Source: a virus (lineage: Duplodnaviria > Heunggongvirae > Uroviricota > Caudoviricetes). Taken from it: a stretch of DNA of 64,000 nucleotides. Location of the stretch: IMG/VR virus record IMGVR_UViG_646311923_000012; one strand, given 5' to 3'. Shown here one piece after another: positions 39,001 to 45,000 of the stretch. How positions within the stretch are numbered: the first letter of the stretch is position 1; the number at the start of each line of letters is the position of its first letter. A program made the position numbers.

Positions 39001-42000
39001 TTGGTGTGATTGCTCCGACCCTGCGGTCATCACCTGCTGCACAGCGCCCGAATCGGCTTTCAGCGCATACGCTGAATCGGCTTCCGGTGTCGTGCCTGCT
39101 GGCTGACCAGGATTGACGGTCTGAACATCCCCTGCCTGGTTCGTGGTGTTTTTTTTGCCATGAACCATAGTGTTTTTGTCCTGTTCCTGTTCTTTCTCCT
39201 GCTCCTGTTCCTGTTCTTGGCTTCGAAGCCCCTTAAAAGCCCCTTCGAAGCCCCTTACCGAATTTCGGCTATTATTCCGCCTCACATCCAGATGGAAATC
39301 CGTTTTATATCTGTCGTAAAACACTGACAGAAAAGCGTTTTCAGGTAATGATGCATACTCATTCCTGACACCTGCACAACGGTTATCGCCAGGCTTCAAC
39401 GTTTCCCCAACCTGCCAGGCTGCCATTTCATGGACCCAGACCATCTCTGCATCATGGTCATAGCTACAAAAACCAGCTTCAACAGCCCTTTTAAGCCCCT
39501 TTGAAGCCCCTTCCAGACCAAGCCCGGTTTCATGAGCAAGGTATAAAACTGGCAGGTAATACAAACCCAGCATATTTGCGTGAGGGGATGTCATCAGGTA
39601 AAAAGCAACAACTTGCGCTTCTGCACCCGCCTTTCTAAGTTCTCTCCCCGTTTCTCCCAGCCAGAATCGCGGAGAAACTTTTGCGTAATCACGCATGGCT
39701 ACCTCATCTGGTGCCGAACCTTCCTCCGGATATAATCTGTGGTTCCCAATCGACAGAACCAGAGGAGGTTCGACATGTATTTTTTGAAAAGCCTTTATCA
39801 GGCTCATGTATTAAATGTTGCAGCAACAAACCGCTGGTGTAACAGCCCCTAAATGCTCCCGGATTACAGAGCCTGGCTGCGCGCCGAAACATACCTTCGT
39901 CTCGACATATTGATTAGCGAACTTCAAAAAGAGACTGCATCCATTCATAACCTTCAGGGTATCGATGCTGTTCGCATTCTGGTATCGCGCCATAGTGCTC
40001 TCTCAATAATTGAAGTGCGTCATCTCTCTTTTTCTGAACTGATTTTCTTGCTTCAACCAGCTCTGGAATCAGCGAATATCCCACCGGAAGTGATCCAATA
40101 CCCACCTCATGTTGACGAGCAGTTACAAGATGTGCCATACAACCAGCGTGCTGGATTGACTCCCTGCTCAGAGGCTGAATGGGATCACTCTCTGCTGAAG
40201 AAATACCAAGATTTGTATAATCCTCAATAAGCCCGGCACACGCTTCTGCATCAGCCAGCTTTATTCTGGTTTCCTTGCGCTGTTCTCTGGCTGACAAACG
40301 CCAGAGCAGCGCATTAGCTTTATGTATCAACCACTCTGCCAGCTCCACATCAGATAAACCGCCACGCCAGATGTGCGGACTGTTTTCGTAAACGCTCAGT
40401 GTCAATTTTTTGTCATTACTCATATTTATTACCCAATTAATGCACAGCCAGAGTGTTTCCTGCCGGGCCACCACGATTCATCTGATCGAACAGAACGATC
40501 GCTGATGCAACGAAATCATCAATATCTTTCACCAGCCGTTCCTTCGTCTCTACCAACTCCCGAAAATAAGCGGAACTGTGGCTGCGCATTCGGGCCACCA
40601 GCGGAGGCGGCATCGCTTTTTCGATCGCTGGTAACAACGCCTGAATTTTTTTAACCGCATCAGGAGTGTCTTTCTCCACCCAGCGGAAAATTTTCTGAGT
40701 ATTGCGAGCCATGGCTTCCGGATGGCTGTCGTCATACAGTTCCGGGAACGTCATTCCCAGCTCGAAATACGCTTTGGTAATTTTCGCAGCCGGTACTTTT
40801 TCGCCGTCCGGATGCGCCCAGGCATTCATCGCCATGCGGATGTGTTCATGCTTGATTTTCATGAATCAACTCCGGCGCATTTGATGTGTTAACCTTACAT
40901 CCAACAGGTAAACCGTCGGTTGGGTTAGGATAAATATCTGGGCGGATTTCATGCGGGGTAACTTCCCACTTCATTAGTTGGCATAACGGAATTACCTGCT
41001 TTGGGGGAACGCCAAAGCTAAACCATTGCCAAACAGTCTGTTGAGCGACCCCCATATAACGACCTATTTCAGCCTGAGTGTATTTCTGCCTAATTTTTTC
41101 GCGAGTGCTATCTAGCATTTTGCCCTCCTCTAAAAACTATAAGCAAAGCCTACAATAAAAAACTGTATGCAATCAACAGTTTTTTATTGTGATGCTTTTA
41201 ACAGTATTTACCTGTAAAATTGAATAATGATGAGCGCCCTAGAAGTATCTATGTACAGAATCAGCAAGCTTCTTCAGGAAACTGGATGGAGCCAGGCTGA
41301 GCTTGCCCGTAGAATTGGTGTGACACAACAAACTGTTCAACAATGGGTCAGCGGTAAGGCTACACCTAAAGCCTCAAGTTTGGATAAACTGGTTGAGGTT
41401 TCAGGGCATCCATTGCATTGGTTTTTATTGCCTCCTGAAGAGTGTGAGCAAATTTTCACCCCTGACACGATGAAAATTGGTCCTCGCCAACGCGAACTGC
41501 TCCAAGCTTTTAGTGCGTTTCCTGAGGAAGACCAAGAAAAAATGCTTCAAGAAATCAAAGACAAGAAAAAATCAATGGAAGAAACCATTGCTAGGTGGCT
41601 GGCGGCACAAAAAAGCCGCCGGGCGTGACCACAGTACAAGAAGAGGAGTTATGCCATGGGTACAGCCCTTTCTCCGATAGTTTCAGAATTCGAAACTACC
41701 GAACAAGAAAACAGTTACAACGAATGGTTGCGCACTAAAGTAACGTCAAGCCTTGCAGACACTCGCCCCGCAATTCCACATGACGAGGTAATGGCTGAAA
41801 TGGAAAATCTTATTGCTCAAATTGCTGTAACTAACAAGAGCGAGTAATGTTACCCATTTTATGGCTACCGTCTGCTCGCGATGATTTGCGCCAGATCATA
41901 ACTTACATCGCCAAGGAGAACCCACCGGCAGCACGTAGACTAAAAATACGCATTGAAACATCGGTATTACCTCTATCTGAGCATCCGTACTTATATCCAC

Positions 42001-45000
42001 CAAGCGAACGGGTTTCTGGATTGAGAGAGATCGTGACCCACCCTAACTACATAATCCTGTACAGAGTAGCTGCTTCAAGCATTGAGATTGTAAGCGTGAC
42101 ACATTCTCGGCGACAATTTCCCTTCTCTATCTGAGTTGAACAATTTTCATACTCCCTCTTTCGAGGGATTTTTTTGCCCAAAACAACAATTAAAAACTGT
42201 TGACACAAAACAGTTTTTAATTGTAGATTACATAAACCAACCACCCACCCCGCCCCACAGAACGCCGGGCAATACTTCGAGTTACCAAGCAGTGGTCAGG
42301 GGGTAAGTAGCCAGCCCGAGGCGTATGAACATGACGGCAGGGTTCAACTTTAATAACTATGCAGCAGGTTTTTGTTCCGCTACCCGGCGTTAAGGGGAAA
42401 TGAGGTCAACATGGATACTATCGATCTTGGCAACAACGAATCTCTGGTGTACGGCGTGTTTCCCAACCAGGACGGTACATTCACCGCGATGACGTATACC
42501 AAAAGCAAAACGTTTAAAACCGAAAATGGTGCCCGTCGCTGGCTGGAAAGAAACTCAGGTGAGTGATATGGATTTCGACACAATCATGGAAAAGGCTTAC
42601 GAAGAATACTTCGAAGGCCTTGCCGAAGGCGAGGAAGCTCTCAGCTTCAGTGAGTTTAAACAGGCGCTTTCCAGTTCGGCAAAATCTAACGACTAACGGA
42701 GTTAAAGATGGAATTTAAAGATTTACTAAAAGAAATCCAGGAAATTGCAGCACATGCACTTCACCAACGTCTGAACGAAGTTGAATTAGAATCTGCAACG
42801 AAGAAATACATTGATAATATGGCTCGTAATGTGCGCGATGCGTTTACCGGATTGTACTCTGTTTCGGTAACAAACAACCAGAATACTGAAGAAACTGCAA
42901 AGCGGATTGCCTCGGTGATGGGTTTTCATGTCGAGGAAAAGTATTCAAAAAAAGAATTCTGGAAAACTACAAAAAAATTGCAGAGCGAGAACTGTCATCT
43001 CCTGCGGCAATCGCTTCTTTCTATGAGGAAAGTTATTCAGATGACACAGGATTACCGGAACTGCTCTCATTACTTGAAAAATTCGGAATTATCATGAAAG
43101 GGACTGCGTCGGCGGATTTCACATACTCAATGATGGCTGCTGATGGAGAGCCTTTTCCTCCCGAACTTAAAATAACCCCCGGCAATCATCCGATGGTAAC
43201 AATAAGAGCAATAGAGAATTACTGGTTTAATCCAGTTCAACAATAGTTGGTCTTTGCAATATTTTTAATGGGCCACTACGCCCTTAATCTCGGGCGGCGT
43301 TTAACTCTTTATTCAGTAAATCAGACTGATACTGATTTGGCTTTGTAATGATACTGTCAAGTTTTGATATATGAAATTCAACATGTTCTGGACAGTTAAA
43401 AATGTAATAACCGCCCTTCTCTAAAAAGCCAGAAAGAGCGTTACAGGCAGGGCATGGTTTGTTTGGCATTTTATCCTCCATTAAGGGCTGAATTAAAAAT
43501 GGAGACCAACACGCTGCTACGTGTGGTCGTGCGCCGGACACAGATAAGAATCCGGCACTGACAGTTTACTGAAAGGATATATCCCTGAAAAGTCAGGGCA
43601 TAACACGAAAGTGCACGGCGAAGTCCTTCTCCCTTAGAGCCGTCGTTAAATTTAATTCGACCGTGCGCTTCCGGTTGTGGCAATCCGCGAAATGGCGCGG
43701 CGGTAAGTATGGCGGGGTTATTCTTTCCCCGTTGAGGACACCGGGTTGTCAGGTTGACCATACGCTTAAGTGACAACCCCGCTGCAACGCCCTCTGTTAT
43801 CAATATTCTGGTGACATTTGGCGGTATCAGTTTTACTCCGTGACTGCTCTGCCGCCCTTTTTTAAAAGTGAATTTTGTGATGCGGTGAATGCGGCTCAGC
43901 GCACGCGGAACAGTTAAATCGGTAAAGCGGTCATTTGCTGAGTAACGAGAATGCTCTGTATCCGGCGTTAATTGTTAACTGGTTAACGTCACCTGGAGGC
44001 ACCAGGCACCGCATCACAAAATTCATTGTTGAGGACGCGATAATGGAAAAGTTATCATGTAATGCCAGCACGTCTGAACTTCGTTTCGAAATTGGCGTTA
44101 TCACTGGAGACAAAACATTTATTGAAGACGCCATTAAGCAGAGAAAACTCGAGCAGGACCTGTTAAATGAAGTATGCATTCCTTCAATGCTGGCTCGTCT
44201 GGACCTGCTGCAAAAAGGATATAAACAATGAATACAACATTTGCACTCGTTCTGACAGTTTATCTTGTTTCCGGCGAATCTCTTGAGCTGGTGACTGGCT
44301 TATACGGTTCAATGAAAGAATGCATGGCTGCAGCAGCAGAACAAAAAATTCCCGGTAACTGTTATCCGGTAGATAAAACTACTCACACTAATAATAACGA
44401 AATACCGGCAGGACTTTAAAACAGCACCGTAATTAATATCCGGTTTCATTTTTATATGCCAGCAATGGCAGGGATTTGTTCACCCTTAAATCTGTAATGA
44501 GGTTAAAACACAATGAGTAAAATCTTTATTTGCGCTGCTATTCCTGACGAACAGGCCATAAAAGAAGATAGCGCTGTTGCGGTGGCCACTGCCATTGAAG
44601 CCGGTGATGAGCGTCGCGCACGCGCAAAATTTCACTGGCAATTTCTGGAGCAATTCCCGGCAGCTCAGGACTGCGCTTATAAATTTATTGTCTGCGAGGA
44701 TAAACCCGGCATACCCCGCCCTGCCCTCGATTCCTGGGATACCGAATATATGCAGGAAAACCGCTGGGATGAGGAGTCAGCTTCCTTTGTACCGGTCGAA
44801 CCAGAATCCGATCCGATGAACGTCAATTTTGACAAGCTGTCCCCTGAAGTACAGAACGCAGTCCTGGTTAAATTCGACACATGCGAAAACATCACCGTTG
44901 ATATGGTGATTAGCGCACAGGAATTACTACAGGAAGACATGGCAACATTCGGCGGACATATCGTTGAAGCGTTGATGAAAATGCCAGAAGTTAACGCCAT

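Follow-up and report, generated by a model that had tools for sequence, protein, structure and literature searches.

The 64,000-nucleotide stretch of the caudoviricete record IMGVR_UViG_646311923_000012 (IMG/VR), which was analyzed at its full length and is called the window here, contains a toxin-antitoxin (TA) module directly after a prophage repressor gene. This was confirmed, and the locus is very probably the published paaR1-paaA1-parE1 three-component type II TA system of the Sp4/CP-933M-type prophage of enterohaemorrhagic Escherichia coli. An original prediction, made from the DNA without database searches, had seen in the two small genes that follow the repressor gene a ParE/RelE-type pair in the position of rexA and rexB in phage lambda. 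Both open reading frames and their stop/start overlap lie exactly where it had placed them, and the two toxin motifs it had quoted (IILYRV and IEIVSVTH) occur within the 95-amino acid product. Gene identity, operon anatomy and operator layout were established in this work. The three genes of the locus are the following:

41227-41628, plus strand: paaR1, CI-like repressor and predicted regulator of the TA operon, 133 amino acids, HTH_3 domain.
41656-41847, plus strand: paaA1, antitoxin, 63 amino acids, ATG start, ribosome-binding site GAGGAG upstream.
41847-42134, plus strand: parE1, toxin, 95 amino acids, ATG start, translationally coupled to paaA1 via a TAATG overlap.

The stop codon of paaA1 and the start codon of parE1 overlap by one base (gagTAATGtta), and both products were assigned to families by hidden Markov model (HMM) searches, with support far beyond chance. 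Membership of the 95-amino acid protein in the ParE/RelE superfamily, which the original prediction had itself named as one point on which it could fail, was borne out by matches to ParE_toxin in Pfam (PF05016, E = 2.9e-17) and to ParE2 of E. coli O157 in the Protein Data Bank (PDB; 5cw7_B, E = 3e-36, 67% identity). The sole Pfam match of the 63-amino acid protein was PaaA2 (PF21217, "PaaA2, stability determinant", E = 5.6e-19), and this protein also matched the RelB-family antitoxin model NF050103 of NCBIfam (92.1 bits, cut-off 50) and the PDB entry of PaaA2 (3zbe_A, E = 1.4e-20). No ribbon-helix-helix (RHH), helix-turn-helix (HTH) or AbrB domain was detected in it by Pfam at E <= 0.1, and neither Pfam nor NCBIfam gave a ParD or RHH match. 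With PaaA2 and NF050103 as its only family matches and no DNA-binding domain, a canonical ParD/Phd antitoxin was ruled out. Of the ParD/Phd-type pair that had been proposed, the dedicated upstream antitoxin was thus retained, but it belongs to the PaaA family and not to the ParD, Phd or DNA-binding RelB types. Since a PaaA-type antitoxin has no DNA-binding domain, the repressor gene belongs to the TA system, which then has three components. In PHROGs, antitoxin and toxin both fall in phage protein families of unknown function, and RefSeq already annotates them as a RelB-family antitoxin and a RelE/ParE-family toxin of a type II TA system.

The family names raise the question of whether the toxin could be a RelE-type ribosome-dependent mRNA interferase and not a ParE-type toxin acting on DNA or topoisomerase. 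NCBIfam names a RelB-family antitoxin and, for the toxin, RelE/StbE (TIGR02385, a borderline 28.4 bits, just over the cut-off of 27.9), and PF05016 spans the entire RelE/ParE superfamily. However, the closest characterised relative, ParE2 (67% identity), induces the SOS response and colocalises with the nucleoid (PMC8630535), and the remaining PDB matches of the toxin were ParE-type "plasmid stabilization" proteins. An mRNA interferase is, in our view, highly improbable.

The stop codon of paaR1 lies 27 nucleotides upstream of paaA1, and this HTH regulator gene is the third gene of the putative operon. Its product matched HTH_3 (2.3e-12) and Phage_CI_repr (7.4e-5) in Pfam and is weakly similar to CI, DicA and the 434 repressor; its PDB matches were generic HTH relatives only (434 repressor, 3.2e-5), with no PaaR structure among them. 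A Peptidase_S24 domain, as found in SOS-cleavable repressors, was not detected by Pfam in the 133-amino acid protein. The genes and sites that surround the operon, named after their lambda counterparts (right and left operators, OR and OL; right and left promoters, PR and PL; promoters of repressor maintenance and establishment, PRM and PRE), are the following:

40437-40862, minus strand: ydaT, CII analogue, 141 amino acids (Pfam YdaT_toxin, 1.2e-9; PHROG 163, CII-like activator, 4.3e-46).
40846-41118, minus strand: ydaS, Cro analogue, 90 amino acids (Pfam YdaS_toxin, 8e-10; PHROG 35, 9e-29).
40852-40869, no strand assigned: YdaT box TTGATTTTCATGAATCAA, a perfect inverted repeat at the ydaS/ydaT junction.
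41147-41215, no strand assigned: OR-like region, with near-palindromic 15-bp operators at 41152-41166 and 41176-41190 (exact) and at 41201-41215 (3 mismatches).
41176-41147, minus strand: predicted PR, TTGATT (41176-41171), 18 nucleotides, TAGGCT (41152-41147), in a register shared with the PL copy.
41215-41229, plus strand: predicted PRM -10, TAAAAT (41215-41220), 6 nucleotides before the paaR ATG at 41227.
42153-42175, plus strand: intrinsic terminator of the paaR1-paaA1-parE1 operon, TCCCTCTTTCGAGGGA (42153-42168) and then TTTTTTT.
42181-42229, plus strand: OL/PL-like region, with operators at 42186-42200 and 42210-42224 and the promoter TTGACA-18-TAGATT at 42200-42229.

The genes ydaS and ydaT are divergent from the repressor gene, and the intergenic region between the cro-like gene and the repressor gene has 108 bp and a G+C content of 28.7%. 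Operators in the OR-like region are spaced by 24-25 bp, and the 15-mer ACAATAAAAAACTGT occurs there as an exact inverted pair at 41152-41166 and 41176-41190. The 39-nucleotide unit formed by this pair (41152-41190) is repeated with 79% identity at 42186-42224, just past the toxin gene, and the exact 15-mer ACAAT[A/T]AAAAACTGT was found at only four places within the 64 kb, two at OR and two at OL. Inside the second operator set lies TTGACA-18-TAGATT, the only strong promoter-like site of the plus strand in this region; it points towards the early-left genes (DUF1391, ydfB, DicF, dicB, exonuclease, xis-like and int). Between the start of paaR and the stop of parE no promoter-like or terminator-like site was found on the plus strand, and in 40800-42450 the only terminator-like site of that strand was 42153-42168 with its T run, 19 nucleotides past the toxin stop codon. 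Divergent repressor and cro-like genes, three OR sites, two OL sites and a PL-like promoter are all present, as expected of a lambdoid immunity region, and the layout follows the lambda order: OR, repressor, passenger genes, terminator, OL/PL and early-left genes. The gene order that had been likened to lambda (operator, repressor, two small genes, operator, early-left genes) was in this way recovered, with the operators repeated at OR and OL and the terminator and PL-like promoter placed as in lambda.

Since no Shine-Dalgarno sequence precedes the paaR ATG, the paaR1 mRNA is probably leaderless, matching the case of paaR2, for which leaderless translation has been shown (PMC8630535). Within the window, TTGATTN6AATCAA, the repeat recognised by YdaT according to PMC9986795, is matched nowhere but at the YdaT box. 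A single match is not significant alone, as at least one was present in 26 of 100 shuffles, and its support comes from its position; the box may be a PRE-like site driving transcription toward paaR. A CII-like role has been shown for the CP-933P homologue of YdaT (PMC8630535, PMC9986795).

Comparison with known prophages pointed to the identity of the locus. YdaT, YdaS, the repressor, the antitoxin and the toxin were 100% identical to ECs_1071, ECs_1070, ECs_1069, ECs_1068 and ECs_1067, respectively, of prophage Sp4 of E. coli O157:H7 Sakai, in which ECs_1069 is annotated as "phage repressor protein" and ECs_1067 as "plasmid stabilization system protein", and positions 27438-48532 of the window were 99.15% identical to Sp4 DNA over 21 kb. 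Sakai Sp4 is the counterpart of CP-933M in strain EDL933 (PMC2884950), and a homologue of paaR2-paaA2-parE2 is located in CP-933M (PMC8630535, citing Hallez et al., 2010). The assignment to paaR1-paaA1-parE1 follows from the protein identity to Sp4, the equivalence of Sp4 and CP-933M, and the placement of the homologue in CP-933M. According to PMC4803016, Hallez et al. 2010 (Mol Microbiol 76:719) found ParE of each O157:H7 paralogue to be toxic and to be neutralised specifically by its cognate PaaA.

The second paralogue, paaR2-paaA2-parE2 of CP-933P/Sp12, has been studied in detail. It forms one operon repressed by PaaR2 (PMC8630535), which is a functional CI analogue that binds OR-like operators and also represses the PL-like promoter (mBio 2021, PMC8630535); this promoter, PL933P, is repressed by both PaaR2 and YdaS (PMC8630535). 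In CP-933P the TA genes lie within a lambdoid immunity region that is bistable and in which YdaS acts as Cro and YdaT as CII (PMC8630535). PaaR2 has no S24 domain and is unresponsive to mitomycin C, ClpAP and ClpXP degrade PaaA2, a protein without a DNA-binding domain, overexpression of the nucleoid-colocalised ParE2 induces SOS, and the operon stabilises an unstable plasmid through post-segregational killing, being therefore addictive (PMC8630535).

A model for the window prophage can be proposed with these reports in mind. In the lysogen, the CI-like repressor PaaR1 would bind the 15-bp operators at OR and OL, and this binding would shut off ydaS (cro-like), ydaT (cII-like) and the early-left genes. 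The paaR1 transcript would also cover paaA1 and parE1, ending at the terminator (42153-42175), and the lysogen would continuously make a stable ParE-family toxin together with a protease-labile PaaA antitoxin, which, lacking a DNA-binding domain, would wrap around the toxin and so neutralise it. On loss or replacement of the immunity cassette, PaaA1 would decay and ParE1 would be freed to act on the nucleoid, probably on DNA or topoisomerase, killing or arresting the cell; the pair would then be an addiction module stabilising the prophage immunity region. Co-transcription, toxicity, specific neutralisation, lability to ClpXP/ClpAP and post-segregational killing are taken from the papers on the system and its paralogue (PMC8630535, PMC4803016), and we infer that they carry over unchanged to copy 1.

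Several points weigh against this model. The experiments on copy 1 are known second-hand, via papers citing Hallez et al. 2010, and addiction was demonstrated for copy 2, not for copy 1. Neither transcriptional state gave a sign of ParE2 activity in single cells (PMC8630535). Binding of ParE2 to GyrA59 was reported to be absent (PMC10886550), so gyrase is at most a candidate target. Of the three roles that the original prediction had offered (superinfection exclusion, abortive infection and prophage addiction), addiction alone has experimental support, and for the paralogue alone.

The same single-cell result would fit a selfish or neutral passenger of the immunity cassette, having no phenotype under natural conditions, and so would the existence of related prophages without the TA genes. 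One of these, found in strain 2014C-3051, has the ydaT and DUF1391 blocks on either side with 85-90% identity; the segment enclosed by them (approximately 40868-42243 of the window, 41248-42316 of the related prophage locus) has another cro and a CI of the LexA family (S24), and no TA genes. The two prophages differ by a natural swap of the immunity cassette, and the presence of the same flanks without the TA genes makes these an optional part of an exchangeable cassette, which fits the published idea of a TA system guarding the cassette. Against a mere passenger, the exact proteins were each found on at least 1000 contigs, intact and identical in sequence, 508 of 5426 complete E. coli genomes (approximately 9%) contained at least 80% of a 1.6 kb immunity-region query, and the paralogue stabilises a plasmid (PMC8630535). 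A passenger without function is, on balance, rather unlikely. Among sequenced phages, megablast of the 1.6 kb region gave flanking matches only and the locus itself was not found; a tblastn search with the toxin gave phage Evi, which carries a paaR2-type trio at 67% identity, and one distant match.

The place of the pair between the repressor gene and OL/PL resembles that of rexAB, and expression in the lysogen is to be expected, so anti-phage defence (abortive infection or superinfection exclusion) could be its main selected function, as for lambda RexAB or for BstA, which is encoded downstream of a repressor. In that case, the infected lysogen would be killed by ParE1 once PaaA1 had decayed, the trigger being the shut-off of host transcription or the activation of proteases on infection. 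Other prophages do carry defence genes downstream of the repressor, BstA being an example (PMC8585504). In contrast, antitoxin and toxin had no PADLOC match, the PADLOC matches of the repressor were limited to its HTH region, neither exclusion nor superinfection is mentioned in PMC8630535, a literature search found no phage-challenge data, and the direct evidence for the paralogue points to addiction instead. Defence as the main function is therefore judged unlikely, and addiction is kept as the preferred role.

Comparison with the paaR2-type trio of phage Evi (4416-4999, compared with window 41227-41847) showed DNA homology over ydaT (90%), which resumes at 41563 inside paaR. In PaaA, 37 of residues 1-45 match the paaR2 type, while the C-terminal residues 46-63 are unrelated (2 of 18). 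Judged from these alignments, repressor and antitoxin are mosaic. The two paralogous systems do not cross-neutralise (PMC4803016), which may be due to the divergent PaaA tail. As a doubtful extension, PaaA1-ParE1, made from the repressor transcript, might in addition guard the lysogen population by abortive infection or against recombination: lysogens would be killed on superinfection by a heteroimmune lambdoid phage or after replacement of the cassette (approximately 40868-42243) by recombination; the unit moving between immunity types would then be the C-terminal oligomerisation segment of PaaR with PaaA-ParE, in front of which DNA-binding domain and operators are swapped.

Other elements were recorded in the window prophage. 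The antisense small RNA (sRNA) DicF (43806-43857, plus strand; Rfam RF00039, 77 bits) lies just upstream of dicB (44043-44231, plus strand), which codes for a cell-division inhibitor; dicF-dicB shows a Qin-like arrangement in the early-left operon, downstream of the PL-like promoter. The sok antisense RNA (34872-35046, minus strand; RF01794, 107 bits) adjoins hokD, according to the annotation of a 99.985% identical locus, and sok/hokD is a second TA system of the prophage, of type I. The sRNA STnc100 (29634-30150, minus strand; 138 bits) adjoins three prophage tRNA genes, which correspond to the ileZ/argN/argO cluster annotated in Sakai Sp4.

The feature was already known from publications (Hallez 2010; Jurenas 2021), from crystal structures of the paralogue and from RefSeq annotation, and it carries little weight as a discovery: the prediction was correct and ordinary.

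In comparison with paaR1-paaA1-parE1 of Sp4, the locus shows no difference. The prophage around it does differ from that of Sakai: at 16873-27438 neither IS629 nor the IS66-family element ISEc8 is inserted, and the segment lying between the two in Sakai Sp4, where it is inverted, has the opposite orientation. Without these insertion sequences, the window prophage may have suffered less degradation than Sp4. At the integrase end, it adjoins another prophage-like region (48533-64000) and not yccA, the flank found in Sakai. This region holds the type III effector gene espK (approximately 49100-50470), an IS66-family element and a second lambdoid tail module, and the two prophages are tandem or adjacent. 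Strain 2014C-3051 matched the window at 100% over 47500-53500, and strain 2011C-4251 at 99.985% over 34800-48400, with yccA on the integrase side.

With paaR2-paaA2-parE2 (structures PDB 3ZBE, 5CW7, 5CZE and 5CZF) the locus shares the three-gene architecture, the position in the immunity region, ydaS and ydaT on the opposite strand, and the downstream PL-like promoter. ParE1 and ParE2 are 67% identical, and PaaA1 and PaaA2 62%. PaaR1 and PaaR2 share 64% identity over their C-terminal 45 residues but only 21% over the N-terminal DNA-binding part, which in the window is an HTH_3 like that of the 434 repressor. The operators also differ, the 15-mer of the window standing against the consensus GTTTAGTAA in CP-933P.

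The resemblance to lambda cI-rexA-rexB consists in genes located between OR and OL, which from their arrangement are predicted to be co-transcribed with the repressor gene and on in the lysogen. No Rex family match was found in Pfam, PHROGs or PADLOC, so homology to RexAB was ruled out and the equivalence is limited to position; RexAB belongs to the abortive-infection systems of ion-channel type, whereas the pair in the window is a type II TA system. With canonical ParDE (RK2, and parDE of Caulobacter and Vibrio) the pair has in common the ParE-fold toxin, the labile antitoxin encoded upstream and the character of an addiction module, but its antitoxin lacks the RHH domain of ParD, and regulation is by a separate repressor.

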